From the IMG/VR virus record IMGVR_UViG_3300014720_000036, positions 1-62,450 of that record: 62,450 bases of DNA, one strand, 5' to 3'. The notes beneath the pieces are model-generated. The model ran no database searches. It had not been told where the DNA came from and was given only the letters and a program-made list of their open reading frames with translations. This stretch comes from a virus (lineage: Duplodnaviria; Caudoviricetes). Both the position numbers and the translations under genes were made by a program. This document shows, one piece after another, positions 7,519 to 61,206 of the stretch; positions within the stretch are counted from its first letter, which is position 1, and every line of letters starts with the position of its first letter.

Positions 7519-8685
7519 TCAGGGCTTGATCTTCGATCCGTGAGCCTTGCCGAAGGACAGCATGTCCTTGGCGGCTGCGAGGTTGTCCTCTGCATCTTCA
7601 CGGCTCAAGCCGCTGTCCTTCAGTTTCTTGGGATCCTTGGAGATCGACTCAAGCCACTTGACGGACGCACGAAGTTCCTTTTCGGTCGGCTGTGCAAAGC
7701 CTTCCTCGACCGCTTCGGTCTTCAACCCGATCACGAACCTCTTCGCTTCTGCCACCGTCTTGAACAACTTTGACCACTTACCCTGACCCGTTGCACCGCC
7801 ATCAGGCGGGTAGACCGTGTAGCCCGTGACCTTCTTGGGATTCTTGTAGTTCTCCCTCTCTTGCCAAATCTCAGCGATCTTCACGCCGTTTCGGTAGCAG
7901 CCGAGGATCTTTTCGTCGGGAAGCCCTTGATACGGAGGAGTCTTCTCCTTGAAGAACTCGACTCCACCCATGCTACTGTCACCGAAGTCCTCGGTCAGCG
8001 CATCGGCGGACTCGAAGGTCAACTTGTAGTTGCCCCGATTGTCCACGGGTGTCTTCCAATAGTCGATCAACGGATGCTTCAGCCTCGACACAAACTGCTT
8101 TGCCGCCTCGAAGCCCTTCGCATCGGAACCAAACACGGCGACAGGAAATCCTCCCATATCGTCGTAGTTCGTGTGCCAAACACCCCAACCTCTCTTGGTT
8201 GCCTCGGGATTCGTGGAGTTCGGGCGTAGGAGGGCGAACATCTTTCCGTTCTTTTGCACGACGAATTCCCCGCCGCCAACCTCCTTGGCGATCACGGCTT
8301 CGGTGAGCGCATCGGCGGACTCGACTTCTTCCTTCCTGTGATATCCCTTCTTGGCGGCAGCGTCCTTCTTCTTCTGGATGTTCTTCAGGAAGGCAGGGGG
8401 AAGATCCTTCTTGCCCTTACCCTCTTCAATGTGCATCTCGACAGCCTTGGTGAATGCGTTGGCTTCCTTAGTGGTGCCACGACATCCGCAGTCGGAGACA
8501 GCCTCGTTGAAGTGGTCTCGCAGGAGAGAGCGACGATCCTCAAGGATCATCTCATCTCCGATCTGTGCAGCAGTCTTCTCAGCCGCCTCGTTGAGGCAAG
8601 GATCGATGTCGATGTCGTTCCTATGTTCCGAGAGGAACTTGGTGATGTCGGCGACGATCTTGGAATCGAAAGGATTGCTGAACAT
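7519..8685 (-). CDS. Modular internal-head-type protein with ESADALTE linkers
   Basis: Start moved to MFSNPF (AGGAG site; CTAAATA at 8708-8714). Two ESADALTE linkers plus TEAVEE separate small modules. Confidence 0.75.
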   Translation of the reverse strand: MFSNPFDSKIVADITKFLSEHRNDIDIDPCLNEAAEKTAAQIGDEMILEDRRSLLRDHFNEAVSDCGCRGTTKEANAFTKAVEMHIEEGKGKKDLPPAFLKNIQKKKDAAAKKGYHRKEEVESADALTEAVIAKEVGGGEFVVQKNGKMFALLRPNSTNPEATKRGWGVWHTNYDDMGGFPVAVFGSDAKGFEAAKQFVSRLKHPLIDYWKTPVDNRGNYKLTFESADALTEDFGDSSMGGVEFFKEKTPPYQGLPDEKILGCYRNGVKIAEIWQERENYKNPKKVTGYTVYPPDGGATGQGKWSKLFKTVAEAKRFVIGLKTEAVEEGFAQPTEKELRASVKWLESISKDPKKLKDSGLSREDAEDNLAAAKDMLSFGKAHGSKIKP

Positions 8686-8707
8686 GCTGTCTCCTAGTGA
8701 TACTCGG

Positions 8708-8981: not shown

Positions 8982-11900
8982 TCAGCCTTTCTTCTCGGGG
9001 TTGTGACCCCAAACTTTGAGTGCTAGCAACTTGCGGGTCGGGCGACCCTTCTCGTCCCTCATGCCGCCCTTGGCTCCCTTCATGCGGGAGATGAAGTTGA
9101 CCTGCTTACCCGCCCACTTCCAATCGTTGGCGGTCCACTTCCCCATGGGGGTGTCGAGCATTCGGATGATCGCTCGGGCGGAGTCACGACCGCTAGTGAT
9201 CTTCTTGCCACCTGTGCCCGCCTTCCCTGCCTCCTTGCGTGAGAGACCCGCCTCCTCGCCCCCCTCGGAGTCAAGGAAGGATTGGATCTCCTTGCCCGAC
9301 ATGTTTACGAGTTTTTGCCACTCTTTGTAGAGGCTGCGCTTCTCGTCATCGATCTCCTTGCCGTCCTCTTCTTTGAGCCGTTCACGCTCTCCAGGAGTAT
9401 CACGCTTGTAGGTCTTGACGATCTCGTCGCTGCCGATCTCAAGGGGACCACGCTTCGTGAGGGCGGTCCATTGCATCACGCTGTGGATCTTGTCGGCTTC
9501 CATGAGCCATTCGTCGGTCACGACGAGCGACTCGGACTTGCCGTGCATCTTCCATGCCGTGGCGTAGAAGACATCCTTCCACTTCTTACCGTACCGCTTC
9601 TTGAACTCCGCCTTGACCTTCTCCTTCTTGGAGAATCGTCGGGCGGGTCCGCTAGGAGGACTCACCTCCATGAGCAGGTAGTCGAAGTCCTCGTTGATGT
9701 CCGTGGGTTCGTCCGTGCCCATTTCGGCTGCACGGACATCCTTCAGGTGATCGATGTATGCCCTGACGAGTTCGGTCGCCTCGGACATCTCACGCTCACG
9801 ACAGCGATCCTCGTAGGCGATGGCGAGACGCAACTTGGATGCCGTCCCTTCCTGCGACTCATCGATTGACCACAGCCTTTCCAAAGCCTCGTCATGTTCG
9901 TACCCACTCTTGAGTGCCTTGACCTTGCCCTTCTTCTCCAACTTCTTGAAGAGGGCGGTGTACTTGGACGGCTTCGTCTTCATTTTCTTCTCCCTTGGGT
10001 TCACGAACTCCCATGTCTTGGGATCGTCATCGGACATCCTCTTGCGCTTGGCGAGTTCCCTGCTTCGGGTCTTCGCCTCGCCCTTGGAGAGCCCTGAGAC
10101 ATACTTCTTCGGGAGACCTGATGCCTTGTCCTCGGGAGACTTCTTCGTCTTTCCTGACTTGGTCTTGAACTTCTTGCCCTTGGTGGCATCCGCTTCCGTA
10201 ATAGGGGTGCCATCGGTCTCGTATTCCATGCCGAGGACGGGCATGAATGAGTAGAGGATTTTCCCCACGGGGGTCAGATCCACCTCTACTTGGGCGAGGA
10301 TCTTACCAAGCAACTTGACGAGAAACCTCCCCAACAGGGTCTTCTGCATGAAGGTGTTGAGGGTTGTGGTCGCACCCATGACCTTGTATGCGTGGACGAT
10401 GATCTCTGCCTTGGTGGACTCAAGTTCACGCTTGAACTGCTCGGGGGTGAGGACCTTCTTCTTGTTGGCGAGGGTGAGGATCTTGGTTGCCACCACGGGA
10501 CTCTTGATGATGTCCTTGGCGGCATCGGTGACCTCCTTGGCGGACATCTCCGTGATCTCCTCTTCCTCCTCTTCCTCCTCGCCGCTGCGCTTCTTGGAAG
10601 GGTCGGGCTGCGGGTAGATGCCCTCTGCGGGATCCACGATGCTGCCCGTCTGACCGAGGAACCGAAGACCGATGAGTACCTTGCTCGACATGTGGCTGCG
10701 GTCGCCGAGCGAGAACTTGATGTTTGGGTAGTGCTTGCCGTGGAAGTCGATGTCCATCAGGACCACAAGACGCTTCTTCTCGCCGACCCCCGACTTGACT
10801 CTGATGCGGCTAATGATCTTTTTTGTCACCTTCTTGCCGTTTGCCAAGGTGAAGGTGACAGTACTGTCACCATTGTTCTTGATGTCCGTGGCGTGGATCA
10901 TGTTGTAGCCGCTGTTACCCGTGTCGATCTTGGCTCGGTATTCGACACCATCGACCTTCACAGGCTCACGGACGGCGAGGTTGGAAAACAGTTTCCAATT
11001 CGCCTTGACGAGGATGTGGTTGAGGAAATCCTCGACCAACTCCTCGCCCTTGACATTGTCCTTGCCCTTGCCGTCCTCGTAGTAGCGGTAGTAGATGTTG
11101 CCGCTGCCAGGACTTGCGTTCATCTCAATGATGTACGGCTTGCCCTCGTTGATGACATGGTCGATGCCGACATAGTAGCACTTGCTCACCCGAGCGGCTT
11201 GCTCGACCAACTTCACCTCGTCATCGGAGAGTTGGTGCGACCCACCCTTCGATCCTCGGGCAATGTTCGTGCGGAAGTCCTTCGGTGCCTTGTCCCTCTT
11301 GGCGCATGCGAAGATCTTTCCGTTGAGGACGATGCTGCGGACATCGTTCTTGAAGTCGGGGAGGAACTCCTGAATGATGACCTCGGCACCGAACTTCCAT
11401 AGGGTCTGAAGCACCGACTTCAGGCTCTCCATGCTTTCGATCTTGGAGACACCGATCCCCTCTGCGCCCGTGAGGGTCTTGCAGATGACGGGGAACTTGC
11501 CGCCGATCTCCTTCACGGCTGCTTCGATGTTCGCCTCGCTCGACACATATGCGGTCTTCGGGTGCGGAAGTCCGTGCTTCTTGAGGGCGATGGCGGTCTC
11601 CAACTTGTTTGCGCAGAGTTCCATGCCCCCCTTCTCGTTGACCATGAACACGCCGTTGTTCTGAAGGATGGTCAGGATGGCGACACCGACCTCGCTGTTC
11701 ATCACGCCGCCACGGACAATTGCAATGGTGTCGCTCGGGATGATCGTTGCATCCTTGCCCTCACCATCGTAGTTCTTGATGACGATCTTCTTCGACACCA
11801 CGCTCGACAGGTCGATCTGCGCCTTCTTCGTCTTGACCGCATAGAAGGGGATCCTGCGCTTCTTGCAGATCGCCTCCATCTTCTCAATGGTGTCCGAGAG

Positions 11901-12584
11901 ATCCTTGTCCGAGGAAGTGAGGGCGAGGATCGTGACCTTGTCGCCGTTCTCCCGAGCCTCCTCGACATACTCCTCGTTGAGACCGAGTCCCTTGCGGACA
12001 TCGTTGTAGAGCCGCTCCTTGAGCATTCCGTCATCGGTGGGGATCAGAGCGGAGAACGCCGAGAAGTCGCCCCTGAAAGCAGCCTCACGGGCATCCGTAG
12101 ATTCGACGGTTGCGAGTCCCGTGCCATCCTTGGAGCGGTGTTCGCCCGCCACCTTGACTTGGAACGACTCAAATGCGTATGACCTGCCCTTGGGATCCTT
12201 GGGTGCTGCGGTGCCCTTGTAGTTGCCGATGCGCTCGTAGTCGGACTTCTGATCGTCGCCCGTGACGAGGACGAGGTTCTTGTAACCCTTCTCGCAGAGG
12301 TAGAGGACAGCATCGAACGGATTCGTCGCCTCGGTCGAGATGTTTGCCTCGGGGAAGAGAGCCTTCATGTACTCGACCTTCTTGTCGGTCGAGAGGGGGT
12401 TCTTCTTGGCATCCTGCGCACGGGAAACGAACACGAAGTGGTCGGCACCGAGTGCCTTCGCCTCCGTCATCACGGTGTCGATGACCAACCCGTGACCCGT
12501 TGTCGGAGGGTTCATCCTGCCGAAGGAGAACACGGCGGTGTCCTTGGGACCCTGTTCGTTGATGTGCATGGAGAAGCCCTTCAC
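8982..12584 (-). CDS. rimK: Multidomain protein: HIGH-type nucleotidyltransferase + RimK ATP-grasp ligase + retropepsin-like (RimB-type) protease + small modules including a DUF3140-like C-terminus
   Basis: FSFGRMNPPTTGH; FPVICKTLTGAEGIGV, IIQEF, DVR, DFRTNIARG, GID, IEMNASPG; AKIDTG; LVNMS..GRDSARAI..WGHNP. GTG start with leader KGFSMHINE. Confidence 0.85.
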   Translation of the reverse strand: MKGFSMHINEQGPKDTAVFSFGRMNPPTTGHGLVIDTVMTEAKALGADHFVFVSRAQDAKKNPLSTDKKVEYMKALFPEANISTEATNPFDAVLYLCEKGYKNLVLVTGDDQKSDYERIGNYKGTAAPKDPKGRSYAFESFQVKVAGEHRSKDGTGLATVESTDAREAAFRGDFSAFSALIPTDDGMLKERLYNDVRKGLGLNEEYVEEARENGDKVTILALTSSDKDLSDTIEKMEAICKKRRIPFYAVKTKKAQIDLSSVVSKKIVIKNYDGEGKDATIIPSDTIAIVRGGVMNSEVGVAILTILQNNGVFMVNEKGGMELCANKLETAIALKKHGLPHPKTAYVSSEANIEAAVKEIGGKFPVICKTLTGAEGIGVSKIESMESLKSVLQTLWKFGAEVIIQEFLPDFKNDVRSIVLNGKIFACAKRDKAPKDFRTNIARGSKGGSHQLSDDEVKLVEQAARVSKCYYVGIDHVINEGKPYIIEMNASPGSGNIYYRYYEDGKGKDNVKGEELVEDFLNHILVKANWKLFSNLAVREPVKVDGVEYRAKIDTGNSGYNMIHATDIKNNGDSTVTFTLANGKKVTKKIISRIRVKSGVGEKKRLVVLMDIDFHGKHYPNIKFSLGDRSHMSSKVLIGLRFLGQTGSIVDPAEGIYPQPDPSKKRSGEEEEEEEEITEMSAKEVTDAAKDIIKSPVVATKILTLANKKKVLTPEQFKRELESTKAEIIVHAYKVMGATTTLNTFMQKTLLGRFLVKLLGKILAQVEVDLTPVGKILYSFMPVLGMEYETDGTPITEADATKGKKFKTKSGKTKKSPEDKASGLPKKYVSGLSKGEAKTRSRELAKRKRMSDDDPKTWEFVNPREKKMKTKPSKYTALFKKLEKKGKVKALKSGYEHDEALERLWSIDESQEGTASKLRLAIAYEDRCREREMSEATELVRAYIDHLKDVRAAEMGTDEPTDINEDFDYLLMEVSPPSGPARRFSKKEKVKAEFKKRYGKKWKDVFYATAWKMHGKSESLVVTDEWLMEADKIHSVMQWTALTKRGPLEIGSDEIVKTYKRDTPGERERLKEEDGKEIDDEKRSLYKEWQKLVNMSGKEIQSFLDSEGGEEAGLSRKEAGKAGTGGKKITSGRDSARAIIRMLDTPMGKWTANDWKWAGKQVNFISRMKGAKGGMRDEKGRPTRKLLALKVWGHNPEKKG

Positions 12585-44884: not shown

Positions 44885-45115
44885 CTATCGTGGGTCATCG
44901 ACATTGAATACCTTGTACTTCCCGAGCATGAAGTTGTTGACGGCGAACGATTTGCCCGATCCTGCGCCACCCGCAAGGATGACAGCCTGACCCTCGGTCC
45001 TACCCTTGCCGATGACCACAGCCCTCTCCTCAAGGGTGCGCAGAATGTCCGTGTGATCTAATGTTTCTCCTCGGAGAATCATCTCTTCCTGTAGAGAGAA
45101 GTAAGTCTTCGTCAT
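44885..45115 (-). pseudogene. Truncated P-loop kinase (zeta/AAA_33-like) fragment
   Basis: AVILAGGAGSGKS..KVFNVDD, then TAG and TGA in quick succession. Confidence 0.55.
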
Positions 45116-45294
45116 AGTCTGTTCCTCGTCGTGATCTTTGTGCATGAGTGGGGTGCTAGCCTAGTGTCATTGACAACACCGCTCGTCTTGGGATCACCCC
45201 TCTTCTTCCTCGGGATCGGCTTGACCATGTAGTCAGCCATCCCCTTTGTGAAGGCGAACCAATCCTTACCACGGTTGATGATTCGGTCTTCCAT
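45112..45294 (-). CDS. Small hypothetical protein
   Basis: 60-aa ORF coupled to both neighbours. Confidence 0.45.
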   Translation of the reverse strand: MEDRIINRGKDWFAFTKGMADYMVKPIPRKKRGDPKTSGVVNDTRLAPHSCTKITTRNRL

Positions 45295-45295
45295 G

Positions 45296-46279
45296 TCAGA
45301 CGGGGAGTTTGGGCTCGGAAGCCATGAAGTTGCGCTTCTTCATCGCCGTGAGTGCGACGATGCTCATCTCCTTGTCCTGTGGGCTCCAGTTCAGGACGAA
45401 GGGCATGTTGAGGTGATCCTTGCCGATGTCGAGAATGATCGCCTTCCAGTTGACCGACTTGCCCTTGATTTGTTGGGCGTACTTCGTGAAGGTCTTTCGG
45501 AAAGCGTCCTGCAACTCAGGGATGCTCACGGTTCCGCCGTATCCACGGCTACCGTTGATCCGCTCCCAGAAGTGCTTGGTGAATGCGATGTCGAGACCCG
45601 CCTGAGCGAACAGAGCGTCGAGCATCGACTCAAGCCGCTTGAGATCGTTCCATGTCACGAAGTTGTGTTCTTGCGCCTGTGCGGGCGCAAGCGAGCGCAC
45701 ACCCCCGCCCGTGCGTACACCTGCGCCCGTGGTCGGGCGACCCGTGATGATCGCCTCGCTGATGCCTCCCTTGAGACGGGCGAGGATTGCCTGAGGGATG
45801 CGGACCTTCTTGCGACCGATCTGTCGGCTGTCGCTGATGGAGTTCTCCTCAAGGGTCTCGTCAAGATCCCAAGGACCGTAGTGACCCGCCGAGAGCATCT
45901 TCTTCCGCATCTGCTCAAAGGTGTAGCGGAAGTAAGTGCCCACCTCGTTCGTTTTGATATTGCCGATGGCGTAGTAGACAGACTTCGGGATCTCAATTCG
46001 CTTGCCGTTGCTGTGGTCGTAGACGGTCTCTGCGTCCTCGACCCACGCATGGGCGAACCGCTGTCCCTTGACGGGTCCCTGACCGTAGACCAAGGCATGG
46101 ACCATGACGATCTTCCCCGCCTTGGCATCCTTGCTCTCTAGGTTCGTCCCCGTAGCCGCCTTGCCGAACTGCGCCGTCATCATCAGGAGGTTCGCCGCTG
46201 CGACCATGCAGTCGCCCGTACCCTTCTTGTAGTTCTTGCGCTTCGTAGCCTCGGCTATGTGTTCGTTGAACGACTTCAT
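45296..46279 (-). CDS. Putative internal head polyprotein (Cys-His transglutaminase-like module + alpha/beta module)
   Basis: Leader MKSFNEHIAE; GDC..HAWVE..VYD; LEE and ISE linkers; FTKHFWERIN module. Confidence 0.75.
   Translation of the reverse strand: MKSFNEHIAEATKRKNYKKGTGDCMVAAANLLMMTAQFGKAATGTNLESKDAKAGKIVMVHALVYGQGPVKGQRFAHAWVEDAETVYDHSNGKRIEIPKSVYYAIGNIKTNEVGTYFRYTFEQMRKKMLSAGHYGPWDLDETLEENSISDSRQIGRKKVRIPQAILARLKGGISEAIITGRPTTGAGVRTGGGVRSLAPAQAQEHNFVTWNDLKRLESMLDALFAQAGLDIAFTKHFWERINGSRGYGGTVSIPELQDAFRKTFTKYAQQIKGKSVNWKAIILDIGKDHLNMPFVLNWSPQDKEMSIVALTAMKKRNFMASEPKLPV
45672..45746 (+). repeat. Dispersed TGCGCCCGTG-family repeat cluster
   Basis: tgcgcctgtgcgggcgc..cgcccgtgcgtacacctgcgcccgtgg. 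Confidence 0.65.
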
Positions 46280-46569
46280 CGGGTCCTTGACTGCCACTCG
46301 GGCGTAAGGGGCAGACTCCTGTCGGTGACCGCCTTGGTTTGGTTTGCTCCCGCCGCCTTGAGCCACCTGAGGATGTGATCCCTGCGACTATTCGCTTCCT
46401 CGGCGTTCCGTATCTCCCACGGCTTCATCCGCTTCTTCTCTTCTTGGGATGGCTCATAGTCCTCGACATCGAACTCTCCCCTCACTTCATCCACGGCGAA
46501 GTCCCTCGTTGAATAGACCATGTTCGCCGTGCTGTTCGTTTCCATGATGTGTTGGAGGAAGGTTTTCAC
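46276..46569 (-). CDS. Putative internal head protein
   Basis: GTG start KTFLQHIME; CTAAATA at 46576-46582. Confidence 0.7.
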   Translation of the reverse strand: MKTFLQHIMETNSTANMVYSTRDFAVDEVRGEFDVEDYEPSQEEKKRMKPWEIRNAEEANSRRDHILRWLKAAGANQTKAVTDRSLPLTPEWQSRTR

Positions 46570-46851: not shown

Positions 46852-47622
46852 TTAGAACTTGATGCCGACACCAAGGCCGACGATCAGGTCAGTCTCGGGG
46901 ACGGAGATGCTCTGCGTGATGGGGAAGTCCACCTTCGCTTCGATGGACACGGTGCTGCTTGGGGTCCAACTCACGACAGGACCGAGGAAGATCTGATCTT
47001 CGCTGACATCGATGTAGTAGATCTGAGTCAGTTCGGCTGCGAGACCGAGGTCGCCCCACTTGTAGCCGAGGTTGCTGCCGAGGGTGAGGATGTCCGAGTC
47101 GGTCTTCGCACCGAGCCACGGGGTGTAGGCACCGCCTCCAACGAAACGGAACTCTGCGGTCTGCGTGAAGTCGAACACCCAAACCTTACAGCCGAGGTCG
47201 CCCGTGAAGAACGGATCGACATTGGACGAATCGAATGCCTCCGAACCAACAGGAAGGTACACACCGCCACCAAGAGCCAGATTCCACTCACCGAGGAATT
47301 CATTGGTTCCTTCTGCGGCGACGAACTGACCACCGACAGCGAGGTTTGCGATGCTTGTCTCATCGCCCTGATTGTACACGGGCACAGAGACGAAGACCTC
47401 GGTTCCCTCGTTGAGCGAGAGGGTGAAGGTCGTGTCGAAGGCGAGAAGATCCTCGCCACCGTCGAAGGTGTGGTAGCCGAAGTCCTCATGGATCGACCAC
47501 TTGATGTCCGAGACAGCCGCCTTGATCGACGGCTCGTCCTGCGGATTGCTGCCCTGTGCGAGGGCAGTCGTTGCGAGGAGGGCTGCGATGCCCATCCCCA
47601 CCATGTTCTGCTTGCTGATCAT
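46852..47622 (-). CDS. Outer-membrane beta-barrel protein with signal peptide
   Basis: Signal peptide ..LLATTALA; amphipathic strands; C-terminal beta-signal VGLGVGIKF. Confidence 0.8.
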   Translation of the reverse strand: MISKQNMVGMGIAALLATTALAQGSNPQDEPSIKAAVSDIKWSIHEDFGYHTFDGGEDLLAFDTTFTLSLNEGTEVFVSVPVYNQGDETSIANLAVGGQFVAAEGTNEFLGEWNLALGGGVYLPVGSEAFDSSNVDPFFTGDLGCKVWVFDFTQTAEFRFVGGGAYTPWLGAKTDSDILTLGSNLGYKWGDLGLAAELTQIYYIDVSEDQIFLGPVVSWTPSSTVSIEAKVDFPITQSISVPETDLIVGLGVGIKF

Positions 47623-47781: not shown

Positions 47782-50700
47782 TTACGAAGCGTAGGGCATT
47801 CCCATTTCATCGCCCTTGGCGGAGAGGAACTCTCGCCACATCTTTTCCGCCTCAGGTCCCGAGTAGATCTTCTTCCCGTTCGGGTAGTACAGGACTTCCT
47901 CGCCCTTCTTGAAAGCCCTGCCCTTGGCATCGACTCCCGCATACTTCGCCGTGATCCATCGGGGGTCGCCCGAGTATGAGGACGAACGGAAACCCGAACG
48001 GCGGTAGTACTCGTTGACCTCGACCGATTCCTTCTTCACCCCGCCACGCTTCCACTTGGAGGGCGGGTTGATCGCCTTCCTGAACGCCGCACCCGCATCG
48101 AACGGCTGCGACAGGTCGAGTACCTGCACCCTGAACGAGTGGAAACCCTTCGCCGCCGCCAATTTCTTCACCCGCTCGACATCCTGCGGGGACTTGCCCT
48201 GCGTGTAGATCGGCTGCGAGTGCAGTTCGTCGGTTTCGCCGCTCGGGATCGCCCAAAGGATGTATTCCTTCGCCTCGGTCAGCGCATCCGCTTCCTCTCC
48301 GATCCGACCGATGCCGATGCCGTGGTTGAGGAACCAATCGTATTCGGAAGTCTTCTGCGCTTGCCCGAATCCGCCCGACTCGGCTCGGATGATCGTTATG
48401 GCACCCACATTGAGACGGAAGCCGCCGTTCGGAGCCATGCTCAAGTAGCCCTTGATGATGCTTCGGGCGTTGCGGGGATGCGGGAACTCGACATCGTATG
48501 ACACCCCGTAGTGCGAGTAGTCGCCGCTGCGGTAGAGTTCCCCACCCGACTTGACCGTTACGAGGATGTCTGCCAACTTGTACTTCTTGCCCTTGTTCAA
48601 CTTCATCGGGGCAACTTCGCCCTTGAAGAAGGTGGCATACTTGTCCGACTCGGTCAGCGGATCGGTATCCTCCTCGACGCTCTCGGTCGTGACCCGCAAT
48701 CCCATCATTCCGAACACGCCCTTGATGTGATCCCTGACCGTGGGGTTTCCCTTGCGTGACGAGTTGATGTACGCATCGCTCCCATCAAACTCAATCGTGA
48801 ACTGATGGTCTAGTGGTCTGTCATGCTCAAACGACCATTGCTTCATCCCACCCGAAGACTTGGGTGCGCCGAAGATCGACCTGAGTTCGTTCTCCTTCAC
48901 ACCATGAAGCACGAACTCGGTGTTGTCGCCCGAGACAGTCTTGCTCGACTTCTTGTATTGGAAATTTCCGAAACGCCTCTTAGCCGTTTGGACATCAATG
49001 CTCTCCGTGACCTCGACCTTCTCCGTGACCTCGACACTCTCGGTCGTGTGCTTCTTGACGGTCACTTTCGATCCACCGAGCGTCTTCTTGTAGATGGCGA
49101 CGATGGCTTGCATGTCCGATTCGTTCTTGCACTCAAACCCATGGTCACGCATCTTGCTGCCCATGTTGAATCCCGAACCCGACATCATATTCGCAAGACG
49201 CTTGGGGAGTGCTTGGTATGCAGCCTCCATGCCGTCATAGTCCTTCGACATGATGCTGAACTCGACTGTCTTCGCCTCGGTCAGCGGATCGAAGGACTCG
49301 ACCTTCTCCGTGGAGTCCTCAAGGAGGTACTGATACGGCTTGAGCCACGCTCCCCATCGGAACTCGTCCTTATGGGTTCGGCTCTCCGTGACAGGCTCGG
49401 CAACGACCTCGACGCTCTCTGCCTTCACCCCAAGTGAGCGGAGTTGCTGCTTGAGCCTCTTGATCTCGTCTTCAGCCCGCTTCATCCGTACTGCGCCTCC
49501 CGCCATCGAAGGTCGGTTGCCGATCCCGACGATCTCGTTTTCGAGTTCTTGGATGCGCTTCCGAACCTGCGGGGCGGTCACATACTTGGCGACCTCTTTC
49601 TGATGGTCACGCTTCGCCTTGTCCAACGCCGCTTTCGCCTTCTGCTCGGTGTCATACCGACCGCCGAATGTCGTGCCGTTCACGGTGTCGTAGAAGACGA
49701 AGTAGGCGATCTCCTCCCATTCGGACTTCTCCGCAGGGGTGCGCCACGGCACGGCACCACCGCTTGAAACGGAACGACCCGTTTCCTTGTGCCTCCATGA
49801 GGAGGTGCGTATGACCTTGGTGTGATCCGTCCAATGGGAGTAGCCACCCATGCGAACGCCTTCGGAGACCTCGACGCTCTCTGCCTTCACCCGCTTCCTC
49901 GGGACATCGTATGCGGCAATGCTGTTCACGACCTTGCCGTCCTTGTCGAGGATGTTGACCCTGTGCCACCCGAAGACGGTGTTCTTGCCCTTCATGTCCT
50001 TGAATATGCCATCCATGTGTGCGGGAAGGGCTTGGATTGAGTTGATCTCCTTCGGGTGCTTGTATAGAACCTCTCCCTTGTAATTTACAAACTGAATCGT
50101 GAAGGGGGATGCCGCATCCCGCAGACCCTTGATGATCATGGGGTAGGGGATCACCGTGTATGGGCCTTCGGTGAGTTCTGCTTCGGCAACCTCGACCTCT
50201 TCCTTCACAGGACCGATGTAGCGGACATGTACGGACTTCTTATTTGAAGCCTTGAGAGCCTCTACGCCCTTGGTTTCTGCTTCCTTCGTGCTGCTTGCCT
50301 GAACCGTGATCTGTTGACCTGTCTTTGCGTGGAATGCAAGGTAGTTACTCAACTGCTCGTTGACCTCAAACGACTCTCCGTGGAATGTGTTGAAATAAGC
50401 GTTTATCACATCGGCAGCGTATGATCCGAGCAACTTCATCTGATTGATCGCAACACCGTGCTTCGTGAGGGTCTTGTTTATCATGGCGAATCGCTTCTGA
50501 AGACTTTTGATCTTCATCACCGTCTTGAGTTCGGTGATCGCTTCCTTCGGCAAAGAATACATGAAGTCTTCAATCGCAGTCTTCACGCCACCCTCGGTCA
50601 GCGGATCGGCGGACTCGACCACGGCATCCTTCTTGAACTTGTGCTTCACGAAGTCCTTGATGGCGTAATCGTGATCCACCATCTTCCTCTCGCTCCAAAG

Positions 50701-51339
50701 GGACTCGTAACTCTTGGGCTTCCCCGACGAGTCCTCCCTGAAGATCGCCGTCTCACCCCCCATAGAGGAGGACGAGACGATGTAGTACTCGGAGCCGTAC
50801 CGATAGAGGGTCTGACTTCCCATCTCCTTGACCAGTTTGATGCTGTCAACTGCCTCTTCGATCTGCTCTCCTTCGCCGACAAACCACTCGTAGAGGTCGG
50901 TGCCGTCGAGGTCGAGCGACTCGCCACGGACCATCGTGAGGTCGAGGCTGACGATGGCGTTGGTTCCCGTTGGGGACTTGATCTTGTTGAACTGCGTGGC
51001 GACCGATGCGACCGATCCCATGCTCTTGCGACGGGCGAGACCGTTGAAGGCGATGGTGAAGTCCCTTGCCTTCGCAGCATTGGCGAAGTACAACTTCATC
51101 TCCTGACCCTCGGTCTTCATGTGGATGATGCCACGCTCAAAGCCCATCCTCGTCAGGAGTTCACGGAACTTCGCCTCAAACTGATGCTTGCCCCAACCGA
51201 AGAGGGTCGGTGCAGCCTCGCCACCCGTGAGGACGGGTTCCTCGCCGATCATCCTTGTGATCTGATCGATCTTGGAGATGTTGGTTCCGCCATACTTTGC
51301 GGCTTCGGCAAGGATCTTGCGCTGATAGTGGTTCATCAT
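47782..51339 (-). CDS. 1185-aa modular polyprotein with repeated acidic protease-site-like linkers (putative virion cargo)
   Basis: Start MMNHYQRKILAE (AGGAG site; CTAAATA at 51369-51375); about 11 linkers such as VESADPLTE, ESVEVSE, ESFDPLTE and EEADALTE. Confidence 0.85.
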   Translation of the reverse strand: MMNHYQRKILAEAAKYGGTNISKIDQITRMIGEEPVLTGGEAAPTLFGWGKHQFEAKFRELLTRMGFERGIIHMKTEGQEMKLYFANAAKARDFTIAFNGLARRKSMGSVASVATQFNKIKSPTGTNAIVSLDLTMVRGESLDLDGTDLYEWFVGEGEQIEEAVDSIKLVKEMGSQTLYRYGSEYYIVSSSSMGGETAIFREDSSGKPKSYESLWSERKMVDHDYAIKDFVKHKFKKDAVVESADPLTEGGVKTAIEDFMYSLPKEAITELKTVMKIKSLQKRFAMINKTLTKHGVAINQMKLLGSYAADVINAYFNTFHGESFEVNEQLSNYLAFHAKTGQQITVQASSTKEAETKGVEALKASNKKSVHVRYIGPVKEEVEVAEAELTEGPYTVIPYPMIIKGLRDAASPFTIQFVNYKGEVLYKHPKEINSIQALPAHMDGIFKDMKGKNTVFGWHRVNILDKDGKVVNSIAAYDVPRKRVKAESVEVSEGVRMGGYSHWTDHTKVIRTSSWRHKETGRSVSSGGAVPWRTPAEKSEWEEIAYFVFYDTVNGTTFGGRYDTEQKAKAALDKAKRDHQKEVAKYVTAPQVRKRIQELENEIVGIGNRPSMAGGAVRMKRAEDEIKRLKQQLRSLGVKAESVEVVAEPVTESRTHKDEFRWGAWLKPYQYLLEDSTEKVESFDPLTEAKTVEFSIMSKDYDGMEAAYQALPKRLANMMSGSGFNMGSKMRDHGFECKNESDMQAIVAIYKKTLGGSKVTVKKHTTESVEVTEKVEVTESIDVQTAKRRFGNFQYKKSSKTVSGDNTEFVLHGVKENELRSIFGAPKSSGGMKQWSFEHDRPLDHQFTIEFDGSDAYINSSRKGNPTVRDHIKGVFGMMGLRVTTESVEEDTDPLTESDKYATFFKGEVAPMKLNKGKKYKLADILVTVKSGGELYRSGDYSHYGVSYDVEFPHPRNARSIIKGYLSMAPNGGFRLNVGAITIIRAESGGFGQAQKTSEYDWFLNHGIGIGRIGEEADALTEAKEYILWAIPSGETDELHSQPIYTQGKSPQDVERVKKLAAAKGFHSFRVQVLDLSQPFDAGAAFRKAINPPSKWKRGGVKKESVEVNEYYRRSGFRSSSYSGDPRWITAKYAGVDAKGRAFKKGEEVLYYPNGKKIYSGPEAEKMWREFLSAKGDEMGMPYAS

Positions 51340-51368
51340 GGTCGGTCGAACTCCTGATTGGATAGGAG

Positions 51369-51375
51369 TATTTAG
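51369..51375 (-). promoter_or_regulatory. T4-type late promoter CTAAATA
   Basis: Between a terminator and the polyprotein ribosome binding site. Confidence 0.7.
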
Positions 51376-51380
51376 CGATG

Positions 51381-51410
51381 AAGAAACCCCCCTCGGTACC
51401 GAGGGGGGTC
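51381..51410 (-). terminator. Intrinsic terminator
   Basis: ACCCCCCTCGGTACCGAGGGGGGT followed by TTCTT. Confidence 0.75.
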
Positions 51411-51590
51411 GGACGGGAGATGCTATCTCCCGTGGGGGCTTCAGCGAAAGAGTGGGGAACCGCTTCCAACCACCCACGGCACCATATTGACTTCCTCGTC
51501 GCCACGATGCCTTGCCCGTGAACATAGCCCCGCTAGCGAGGCATCACGGTGGTTTGCTATATCTATCGACCTCGGGATCTCTCCCGTTAG
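51411..51590 (-). ncRNA. Candidate structured RNA
   Basis: 180-nt intergenic region with stems GATGCCT/AGGCATC, CCGTGGG/CCCACGG and ACGGGAGA/TCTCCCGT, ending in a terminator. Confidence 0.45.
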
Positions 51591-52439: not shown

Positions 52440-53267
52440 TCACTTTCCGTAGGGTTTCATCACATCAATCTTTCCCGTGCCGATGGCGGTAGCCGCCTTG
52501 ATATGTTGGTTCTTCTCGGCATCGATGACAGGCATATTGATCCTGTTCGGGGCTCCGCTCGGTGGGCGAGTCGCCTTGAGTGCGGCGAACCTCTTGACAA
52601 GGAACGCCTCGCCCCCGATGCTCTTCAGCCAAGTCTCCGCCTTGTCCTTGTTGTAGAACCTTGGATCTATACCCTTGCCATTCACGACGGCATCGATCAC
52701 ATCTTTGTCGCTTGCGTCGTAGATGCTGATGTCCCCGCTCGGGGCTCCACGCCGTTGATTTCCATAGGCATCGCCTACGGAACGGAGTACGGGTATGAGA
52801 TCTCCGATGGGGAGACCGATCCTGATGCCCGTCACGCTAGCCGATGGATCGGAGAACATCGTCGCAGCCCACCTGTGGTGACCGTCGAGGATGTGGTTGT
52901 CGAGGCTGATGATGGCGGCGAGGTTGCCACCCTTCACGCCGCCGATTGCCATCCCGAGAGCCTTGCTCAAATAGATGTCCGTCTGTGAGGGCTTGAGATC
53001 CTTCGCAGGGATCGTATCGTTCTTCGCCTTGACTCGGTCATCGTTGGGCTGACCGTCACGCAGACCCTTGGTGAGGAACTCAAACCCCTTCTCTCTCGGC
53101 AGGGGATTCGGGAACTGCTTGGGGTCCACAAACCTCGTCGCCAAGTCCTCCACCAACTGCCCCTCCCACCCGTCCGAGATTGGATCGAACTTGGTGGTGG
53201 TGGACTTCGCAATTTCGTCGGCGATGCGCTTCGCCTCGGCGATTCGTACTCGTTGGTAGTGGTACAT
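52440..53267 (-). CDS. ParB/Srx-fold domain protein
   Basis: LKPSQ..ILDGHHRWAA; start MYHYQRVRIAE; CTAAATA at 53276-53282. Confidence 0.75.
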   Translation of the reverse strand: MYHYQRVRIAEAKRIADEIAKSTTTKFDPISDGWEGQLVEDLATRFVDPKQFPNPLPREKGFEFLTKGLRDGQPNDDRVKAKNDTIPAKDLKPSQTDIYLSKALGMAIGGVKGGNLAAIISLDNHILDGHHRWAATMFSDPSASVTGIRIGLPIGDLIPVLRSVGDAYGNQRRGAPSGDISIYDASDKDVIDAVVNGKGIDPRFYNKDKAETWLKSIGGEAFLVKRFAALKATRPPSGAPNRINMPVIDAEKNQHIKAATAIGTGKIDVMKPYGK

Positions 53268-60832: not shown

Positions 60833-61206
60833 CGGAACCCTCCGCCCACGACCCTCGCCATCAGGGGACCGATATCACGCAGGGCTGCGGACTTCGCCAC
60901 CGACTTGCCGTCTGCGTCGATGCCGACTGTGCCGTTCGGATTGAAGATGATGACGAGTCGCCTCGGTCCCGACCTCGGTCTGAACTCGACCGAGTCGAGG
61001 CTCATCCGAGAGAACGGCGGTCCAAGATCATTCTGCACACCCGTGCGCCCCTGTGCGTGTACACGGGATAGTGCCGCCATCAACTCATCTGTCCTGCGGT
61101 TCAGTTCGTTCGCCTTCGTCTGTACGAAGGGCATGACCGAAGAGCCAAGGTAGTTGGCGAAGGTGCCGTAGGCGGACTCGGCTACGAAAGACAGGAACGA
61201 CCTCAC
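60829..61206 (-). CDS. Putative internal head protein
   Basis: GTG start RSFLSFVAE; GAGGTG ribosome binding site. Confidence 0.7.
   Translation of the reverse strand: MRSFLSFVAESAYGTFANYLGSSVMPFVQTKANELNRRTDELMAALSRVHAQGRTGVQNDLGPPFSRMSLDSVEFRPRSGPRRLVIIFNPNGTVGIDADGKSVAKSAALRDIGPLMARVVGGGFR
61035..61067 (+). repeat. Weak TGCGCCCGTG-family repeat cluster
   Basis: gcacacccgtgcgcccctgtgcgtgtacacggg. Confidence 0.5.

Follow-up and report, generated by a model that had tools for sequence, protein, structure and literature searches.

The locus described here raises the question of whether a single long phage gene encodes one working protein or a string of small proteins that come apart after translation. 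The gene lies on the minus strand of IMGVR_UViG_3300014720_000036, a 62,450-bp stretch of viral DNA that constitutes an entire IMG/VR record and was analyzed at its full length (hereafter, the window); according to CheckV, the record is 28% complete. The gene product of 1185 amino acids (aa), named P0001, was the query in the searches for relatives. We consider it probable that P0001 is a head-targeted polyprotein of internal proteins (IPs) that is cut by a prohead protease, and we infer the packaging, cleavage, and ejection of the pieces, as well as an anti-defence role for them, from the evidence presented below.

Leader, modules, and linkers of the probable polyprotein

The minus-strand frame is open from 47782 to 51525, and a start at 51339 results in a protein of 132.7 kDa with an isoelectric point (pI) of 8.9. 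This start is favoured because a G+C-rich hairpin with its T-run and a TAAATA box fall inside the longer frame, because an AGGAG sequence precedes it, and because of where relatives begin. A word-indexed metagenomic search retrieved 37 long relatives (651–2074 aa) and 55 shorter ones (30–650 aa), and the leader of P0001 was matched in 25 of the 37 long relatives, mostly at their first residue, with N-termini such as MMN..QR.ILAE. The TAAATA box occurs 12 times in the window, each time on the coding strand (2.5 expected) and usually 5 to 30 nucleotides (nt) 5′ of a start codon (e.g., 51369-51374, 46576-81, 42883-88, and 8708-13) and often too near them for a normal leader. The gene and its upstream signals are the following:

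47782..51339, minus strand: polyprotein coding sequence, stop codon included (1185 aa)
51351..51355, minus strand: AGGAG ribosome-binding site (RBS), 8 nt upstream of the start
51369..51374, minus strand: TAAATA box, 30 nt 5′ of the start codon, resembling the -10 element of T4-type late promoters
51381..51408, minus strand: terminator-like G+C-rich hairpin followed by a T-run, read from the sequence, after the upstream gene

The architecture of P0001 is established as a 33-residue leader followed by 12 mutually unrelated modules (M1 to M12) with 11 linkers between them. A preliminary description of this DNA had named 11 short acidic linkers, and all of them were found where it had placed them; the absence of similarity between modules that it had reported also holds, the best BLAST E value among the 12 being 0.67. 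The cut-site Glu residues of the linkers are 162, 249, 328, 391, 493, 652, 688, 779, 897, 1022, and 1110, and 2 further sites are located in the leader (E12 and E33). Since some linkers have 2 sites, the candidate sites amount to 17, 2 in the leader and 15 across the linkers, and a hydrophobic-x-Glu motif, the predicted substrate site of a gp21-type protease, is present at every module boundary. In 2000 shuffles of P0001, none of which reached the observed counts, ES[VF][ED] was expected 0.13 times (7 observed), LTE 0.28 times (5 observed), and EV.E 0.63 times (6 observed), whereas the loose pattern [LI].E alone was not enriched (13 versus 10.6 expected). Strict linker motifs occur 14 times in this open reading frame (ORF) and at most 3 times in each of the 37 other ORFs of the window. 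The modules had been described as Lys/Arg-rich, which holds for the 9 predicted fragments with a pI of 8.0 to 9.7 but not for M1 (pI 5.5), M2 (5.7), and M7 (4.9). In the list below, CTS stands for capsid-targeting sequence, pLDDT for the predicted local distance difference test score of AlphaFold2 models, and P1 for the residue that precedes a module start.

51304..51339, minus strand: leader part 1, aa 1-12 (MMNHYQRKILAE), T4 CTS-like, ends in L-A-E
51241..51303, minus strand: leader part 2, aa 13-33, spacer ending in I-G-E (I/V/L-N-E in the contexts 5′ of M1 in relatives); pLDDT <50 over aa 17-43
50854..51240, minus strand: M1, aa 34-162, predicted alpha/beta domain, more widely shared in the family than any other module; pLDDT 88-96 over aa 51-130
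50593..50853, minus strand: M2, aa 163-249, ends in VESADPLTE; located before M1 in 5 of the 6 long relatives that have it; moderate pLDDT
50356..50592, minus strand: M3, aa 250-328, predicted helical domain, ends in ESFEVNE; pLDDT 92-94 over aa 261-290 and 70-82 to aa 320
50167..50355, minus strand: M4, aa 329-391, predicted beta-beta-alpha-beta domain, ends in EEVEVAEAELTE (2 sites)
49861..50166, minus strand: M5, aa 392-493, ends in KAESVEVSE
49384..49860, minus strand: M6, aa 494-652, ends in KAESVEVVAEPVTE (2 sites); weak match to PHROG 736 over aa 576-639 (E 0.011)
49276..49383, minus strand: M7, aa 653-688 (36 aa), relic of a second leader type (..FVWGGW.KPYQYIL.E), ends in KVESFDPLTE; aligned to the N-termini of P0058, P0059, P0063, and P0035
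49003..49275, minus strand: M8, aa 689-779, ends in ESVEVTEKVEVTE (2 sites); stands behind other leaders in 9 of the 55 shorter relatives
48649..49002, minus strand: M9, aa 780-897, ends in ESVEEDTDPLTE (2 sites); Glu at P1 in 7 of 7 non-redundant contexts
48274..48648, minus strand: M10, aa 898-1022, ends in EEADALTE; directly after leader type B in P0058 and P0059
48010..48273, minus strand: M11, aa 1023-1110, predicted compact beta-beta-alpha-beta-alpha domain, ends in KESVEVNE; also occurs as stand-alone proteins behind a CTS-like leader
47785..48009, minus strand: M12, aa 1111-1185, C-terminal module; C-terminal in 21 of the 21 close relatives that have M12

AlphaFold2 models were obtained for aa 1-391 (34 aligned sequences) and for M11 alone. 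The model of aa 1-391 had a mean pLDDT of 72 and a predicted template modelling score (pTM) of 0.38, with most of M1, M3, and M4 at 82 to 96; M2, for which the alignment was shallow, reached only moderate values. Residues below 50 were aa 17-43, 156-164, 193-197, 218-249, 321-328, and 381-391, which correspond to the leader spacer and 4 linkers, plus one short loop. M11 alone (mean pLDDT 83.5) was predicted as a beta-beta-alpha-beta-alpha fold. The models establish the predicted independence of these domains: confident separate domains joined by low-confidence linkers, as anticipated in the preliminary description, which had expected compact independent domains and disordered linkers. Comparison with known families and folds returned little. 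With P0001 as query, Pfam gave only sub-threshold matches (DosC_2nd, E 0.056; POTRA, E 0.1), PHROGs only phrog_736 (E 0.011, function unknown), NCBIfam no match, PDB sequences a single match at E 0.17, and whole-protein tblastn against 50,697 phage records no match. An embedded peptidase was not found by Pfam, PHROGs, or NCBIfam. The ESM Atlas contained no usable match for M11 or M12, and Foldseek retrieved nothing from PDB at E ≤ 1e-3 for either model; against BFVD, the best E value for M11 was 0.047, to uncharacterised phage proteins. A wide VIA-align search produced best Z scores of 5.4 (aa 1-391) and 5.0 (M11), the noise level of this tool being 7 to 8. Two small phage inhibitors, p56 (Z 4.9) and T7 Gp2 (Z 3.6-4.5), appeared among these noise-level rows and nothing was drawn from them.

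Module shuffling and the boundary rule among relatives

An exhaustive HMMER search with P0001 matched 403 cluster representatives at E ≤ 1e-3, of which 186 reached 1e-10 and 42 reached 1e-30. To describe module content, 13 query segments (the leader, L, and the modules) were mapped onto the relatives in a query-centred manner; single-linkage clustering of motif-cut segments had merged into one cluster. Among the 37 long relatives, L was found in 25, M1 in 27, M3 in 26, M9 in 9, M5 in 8, M2 in 6, M12 in 4, and M4, M6, M7, and M10 in 2 each; M8 and M11 were detected in none of these. The 55 shorter relatives contribute M8 (9 proteins), M11 (4), and M12 (17). Module order differs between proteins: P0003 reads L-M2-M1-M3-M4-M9-M12, P0009 reads L-M3-M9-M2-M4, and in P0037 M3 is located far ahead of M1. 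In addition, the query ends of BLAST segments against relatives gather at the linkers. These comparisons establish the shuffling and show, at the level of sequence, that the modules are units of evolution in the relatives; the occurrence of modules alone or in other orders, proposed earlier as a check, was found in both forms in related phages. A search of viral contigs with P0001 for related loci yielded no locus, and a joint alignment of M11 and M12 relatives (A1) was discarded because M11 relatives had been placed under M12.

We then analyzed the residues that precede module starts in the relatives. Matches that covered at least 60% of a module and began no more than 4 residues from its start were kept, and removing duplicate 10-residue upstream contexts left 174. 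Glu was at P1 in 111 of these 174 non-redundant contexts, and in 111 of these 111 the P3 residue was hydrophobic (V 41, I 33, L 33, M 3, and F 1). P2 was varied (T 39, S 21, N 16, and others), as was P4, and P1′ was mainly G, S, A, or Y. For M3, all 43 non-redundant contexts end in [VILM]-x-E exactly at the module start, despite differing preceding sequence. When the register was allowed to shift by up to 3 residues and T or A was accepted at P3 as well, a site was found in 145 of the 174 contexts. The same hydrophobic-x-Glu rule ends the N-terminal leaders of family members. T4 gp21 cleaves C-terminal to Glu, after L/I-X-E (PMC9026906), so that the boundary rule established here equals, as read from sequence, the specificity published for gp21; compared with the T4 sites, Val at P3 is here as common as Ile or Leu.

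This rule bears directly on the possibility that P0001 is an uncut multidomain "polyvalent" protein, in which the acidic stretches would be flexible linkers of one working chain that acts in the virion or in the infected cell. Phage proteins of 2 to 15 domains are a known theme (PMC5512222), the Pfam domain LPD29 was found in 7 of the 129 relatives scanned, and low linker pLDDT suits flexible linkers as well as cleavage sites. However, mere flexibility would require no particular residue, yet in the 111 contexts Glu occupies the exact module edge, with an invariably hydrophobic P3 and varied P2 and P4. Moreover, the same rule ends the leaders, the same modules occur alone behind 10-residue leaders, and P0001 contains neither an embedded peptidase nor another domain of the polyvalent repertoire. 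We therefore regard an uncut chain as unlikely and a polyprotein cut at its linkers as the better reading.

In other lineages, M11 and M12 are flanked by recurring linkers that do not end in Glu: 13 proteins contain 2 or more copies of S-R-P-G-x-K-A-K-F, and 4 contain 2 or more copies of R-R-N-P. Relatives with such other linkers are P0105, P0178, P0181-P0191, P0199, and P0204, together with P0150, P0152, P0197, and P0203. Both may be linker forms for other processing systems, and the presence of M11 and M12 between them suggests that each lineage might have its own linker form matched to its own maturation protease.

The linkers are also distinctive as DNA. Of 9 direct-repeat families within the gene, 8 (D1-D7 and D9) overlap linker-coding stretches, and D8 lies inside modules. 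The repeats at 49405-49430 and 49867-49892 are identical over 26 of 26 nt, and another pair spans 29 nt with 93% identity. The sequencing runs that contain the gene are lake and freshwater metagenomes, and none of the runs listed for it is an RNA run. In contigs of X6, which represent a diverged relative from another freshwater study, homology is lost at 48288, 48305, 49309, 49426, 49842, and 50189; linker DNA is no more than 5 nt from 5 of these 6 listed breaks and 19 nt from the remaining one, and 11 further loose ends were counted across all runs. Two X6 joints, 48664 to 49268 and 51570 back to 48270, were treated as uncertain, their sides being only 32 and 36 letters long and located in linker repeats. 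Runs X3-X5 consisted mainly of short contigs identical to the window, with a few diverged ones in X4, and gave no clear mosaic information. Because near-identical repeats are found where relatives differ in module content, the linkers are probably recombination points for module swapping. Tentatively, and with more doubt than confidence, we propose that they have a dual role as prohead-protease sites and short DNA recombination sites, and that the gene is an integron-like array from which lake phages assemble combinatorial sets of injected proteins. If so, any small domain flanked by linkers could become head cargo without a promoter, start codon, or targeting peptide of its own.

Proposed capsid targeting, the candidate maturation protease, and the genomic setting

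The first 12 residues of P0001 resemble the CTS of T4, MKTYQEFIAE, a likeness of sequence only. From T4 IPs, the CTS is removed by the only cut that they undergo, adjacent to it (PMC8442874); CTS residues 4 and 7 matter most for targeting, and residues 8 and 10 for processing, and Asp in place of the P1 Glu prevents T4 processing (PMC9026906). M11 also forms stand-alone proteins of 80 to 95 aa behind 10-residue leaders with the exact spacing of the T4 CTS. Examples are P0172 (MKTFVQHIRE|AKEYILWG, 82 aa, from a cluster of 64 members), P0091, P0156, P0159, and P0131. Two leader types occur in the family, in P0072 and in P0063, each on contigs of 166,644 bp, and M7 aligns to the N-terminal leader (MPDGDFVWGGWRKPYQYILGE|) of P0058, P0059, and P0063. 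Given this homology between M7 and N-terminal leaders elsewhere in the family, P0001 looks like a fusion of two such genes. Hence, the single leader of the preliminary description must be qualified, M7 being the relic of a second one.

The window itself carries a T4-type replication module, with PHROG matches to the gp43 polymerase, gp44 clamp loader, gp45 clamp, RegA, UvsX, gp41 helicase, and gp61 primase. Its genes are almost all on the minus strand, its G+C content is approximately 57%, and its polymerase is less than 50% identical to that of any cultured phage, the nearest being those of T4-like cyanophages. The head-morphogenesis module is absent from this fragment: gp21, gp22, and gp23 were not found in the 62,450-bp record. 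A more complete relative, G001 (168,426 bp, 93% complete), carries a homologous polyprotein (P0034) at a locus syntenic with that of the window, and its Peptidase_S77 homologue of gp21 (112.7 bits) establishes that a gp21-type protease accompanies the family in a relative. In another relative, G002 (65% complete), gp21 was not found. G001 also encodes the major capsid protein gp23 (497 bits), which contains L-R-E (..YLRE|SAPTNF..) near its N-terminus, a site of the same form that, by comparison with T4 gp23, would be located at the maturation cut. Altogether, the boundary rule, the CTS-like leader, the stand-alone leader-plus-module proteins, and the gp21-type protease of the relative favour the earlier reading of the linkers as prohead-protease sites, with the cleavage itself standing as a prediction.

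The G001 genome also informs on whether P0001 might be a scaffold-like or filler protein of the core that, as T4 gp22, gp67, and gp68, is cut many times and whose pieces exit the head before DNA packaging, rather than cargo. T4 core proteins are cut into multiple fragments, most of which leave the head (PMC9026906), and the gp22-like scaffold of G001 bears 4 xLTE sites of the kind found in the linkers. However, in this relative a separate gp22-like scaffold is encoded next to gp21 and gp23, at approximately 13.8 to 17 kb, while its polyprotein is located at 138 to 162 kb, approximately 120 kb away. Furthermore, the modules that were modelled are confidently predicted globular domains, which hundreds of relatives conserve as whole units but arrange differently, and fragments of 9 to 17 kDa are within the size range of the T4 IPs that are retained (8-20 kDa; PMC9026906). 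A scaffolding role is thus quite improbable. Another alternative is that the whole chain is packaged or injected and is cut later or elsewhere by a Glu-specific protease of the host or by another such protease of the phage, or that cutting is partial and multi-module pieces are active. The presence of 2 sites in some linkers and 1 in others makes the extent of cutting unreadable from sequence, and incomplete cleavage has been observed in giant phages (PMC10052503). Against this, the motif is the one for which the head protease family represented in the relative is specific, and the major capsid protein of that relative has a site of the same form. We consider late or partial cutting highly improbable.

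Under the head-targeted polyprotein reading, the 132.7-kDa precursor would be made from the gene with the TAAATA box and RBS upstream, and its N-terminal 12 residues would act as a T4-like CTS that brings it into the scaffolding core of the assembling prohead. A gp21-type prohead serine protease would then cut after Glu in [V/I/L]-x-E at the 2 leader sites and the 15 linker sites, as the boundary rule suggests, thus freeing 12 small folded proteins (4.4-17.5 kDa) and a few acidic peptides of 4 to 7 residues. By analogy with T4 IPI-III, the small proteins may be retained with the DNA and pass into the host upon infection, where they would serve host takeover or counter-defence.

Several observations weigh against this interpretation. 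CTS-like N-termini are also present on enzyme-like proteins, namely a nucleotidyltransferase/ATP-grasp protein and, in G001, a protein whose motif we read as HAD-like, which means that the motif may not always indicate packaging. The late promoter that the gene had been assigned is only putative: the only such element upstream is the TAAATA box, the full TATAAATA is absent from the entire window, and the box also stands before some replication-module genes. Because the query boundaries were first drawn from the motif, the boundary count is independent only in the upstream sequences of the relatives, where 63 of the 174 contexts are without Glu exactly at P1 (many of them register shifts of 1 to 3 residues) and approximately 29 are without any such site, for the most part contexts of M11 and M12 from lineages that use different linkers. 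Knowledge of a cognate protease comes from the relative alone, since the window contig is a fragment without gp21, gp22, and gp23. No module matched any anti-defence family or any other known family or fold in the searches described above. Finally, 3 fragments are acidic, unlike the T4 IPs, which are called highly basic in PMC8442874.

Several genes in the window resemble the polyprotein or surround it. The ORF at 7519-8688 (minus strand; 389 aa from the ATG at 8688) encodes a smaller protein of the same kind, with 2 ESADALTE linkers and approximately 4 modules, 3 of which recur within the family, in P0111, P0073, and P0206/P0108/P0102; it is preceded by a TAAATA box and an RBS. The ORF at 8982-12584 (minus strand, 1200 aa) has the CTS-like N-terminus MKGFSMHINE and contains a cytidylyltransferase-like domain (aa 3-208), also present in P0121, a family member that carries M3, followed by a RimK-family ATP-grasp ligase (251-493) and a retropepsin-like aspartic peptidase (543-655). 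Its long charged tail includes a run of 8 Glu before ITE, and 10 acidic clusters of the hydrophobic-x-Glu type were counted in the protein.

At least 8 other ORFs of the window begin with CTS-like peptides (M-K/R-S/T-F-...-hydrophobic-x-E). CTS-like start codons on the minus strand are at 61206, 60832, 59915, 53267, 51950, 46569, 46279, 8978, and 6687, with MKSFNEHIAE at 46279, MKTFLQHIME at 46569, and MYHYQRVRIAE at 53267 as examples. Several of these ORFs surround the polyprotein, and their homologues are found in the same order in G001. With so many CTS-like ORFs, the region resembles the variable internal-protein loci of T-even phages (PMC2839356). Directly downstream of the polyprotein, the 256-aa protein of 46852-47622 (minus strand), conserved at the same place in G001, has a signal-peptide-like N-terminus and a C-terminal ...GVGIKF like that of an outer-membrane beta-barrel. 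The CTS-like neighbour at 52440-53267 (minus strand, 275 aa) contains LKPSQ...ILDGHHRWAA, which looks like the ParB/sulfiredoxin-type nuclease motif; it matched only PHROG 2859 (unknown function) and nothing in Pfam or NCBIfam. Another CTS-like protein, encoded at 45296-46279 (minus strand, 327 aa) and conserved beside the polyprotein locus of G001, shows a GDC...H...D spacing that suggests a papain-like cysteine peptidase fold; its only match was PHROG 23027 at the C-terminus. At 44885-45145 (minus strand), a P-loop protein (..AGGAGSGKSF..) ends after 86 aa, while its G001 homologue has 353 aa, probably as a result of a deletion or truncation in the window phage.

Significance and comparison with known systems

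No description of CTS-led cargo strings joined by prohead-protease sites was found in searches of open-access papers and bioRxiv. If our interpretation is correct, a single gene with a single targeting peptide would allow T4-like phages to deliver approximately a dozen small proteins, all different and in equal amounts, which would extend the picture of one gene per internal protein drawn from T4. The 403 cluster representatives, almost none of which has a named domain, would then be a catalogue of phage-injected proteins. To our knowledge, IPI is the only T4 internal protein with a known role, that of a restriction inhibitor, which makes this family a good place to seek new counter-defence and takeover factors. 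The linker rule offers a simple way to detect such cargo in metagenomes, and the linkers would permit loading several foreign proteins into phage heads from one construct.

One close parallel is with the T4 IPs. In both cases, a peptide of approximately 10 residues with an aromatic residue near position 4 ends in hydrophobic-x-Glu, and the setting is a T4-like phage with a variable locus of several such genes whose predicted products are small and mostly basic; the stand-alone relatives made of a leader and M11 have the exact T4 IP layout. Unlike the T4 IPs, which according to PMC8442874 are single small proteins cut once, P0001 combines one leader with 12 modules and approximately 15 further sites in 1185 aa. 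Moreover, its leader has 33 residues with 2 sites, and it has no sequence similarity to the T4 IPs.

Like the polyvalent proteins of Iyer et al. 2017 (PMC5512222), P0001 joins many unrelated domains in one polypeptide, its 12 modules with separate predicted folds being within the 2 to 15 unrelated domains that characterize them, and both share extensive mosaicism and a predicted delivery with the DNA. These authors liken polyvalent proteins to viral polyproteins and propose release through embedded peptidases (MPTase) (PMC5512222). In contrast, P0001 is without an embedded peptidase and its sites fit a separate prohead protease. No domain of their catalogue (LPDs, MPTase, ParB-like, ART, and others) is present in it, LPD29 being restricted to the 7 relatives mentioned above.

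As in T4 gp22, gp67, and gp68, which are cut by gp21 (PMC9026906), many L/I-x-E sites are present; those proteins are conserved, belong to the structural module, and give pieces that mostly leave the head, whereas P0001 is a hypervariable string of globular domains encoded in another locus. The ejection proteins of the giant phages phiKZ and SPN3US are head-internal and enter the host, and their cleavage follows the Glu of short motifs, in some cases at more than one site (PMC10052503, PMC9026906). There, multiple cuts eliminate a long N-terminal propeptide and leave a single mature fragment, whereas in P0001 every interval appears to be a conserved folded module. As an operational analogy only, P0001 is also comparable to the polyproteins of RNA viruses, in which one translation product with short conserved sites provides several proteins in a fixed molar ratio; here, however, the product would be the cargo of a double-stranded DNA phage, with its protease encoded elsewhere and a combinatorial module content.

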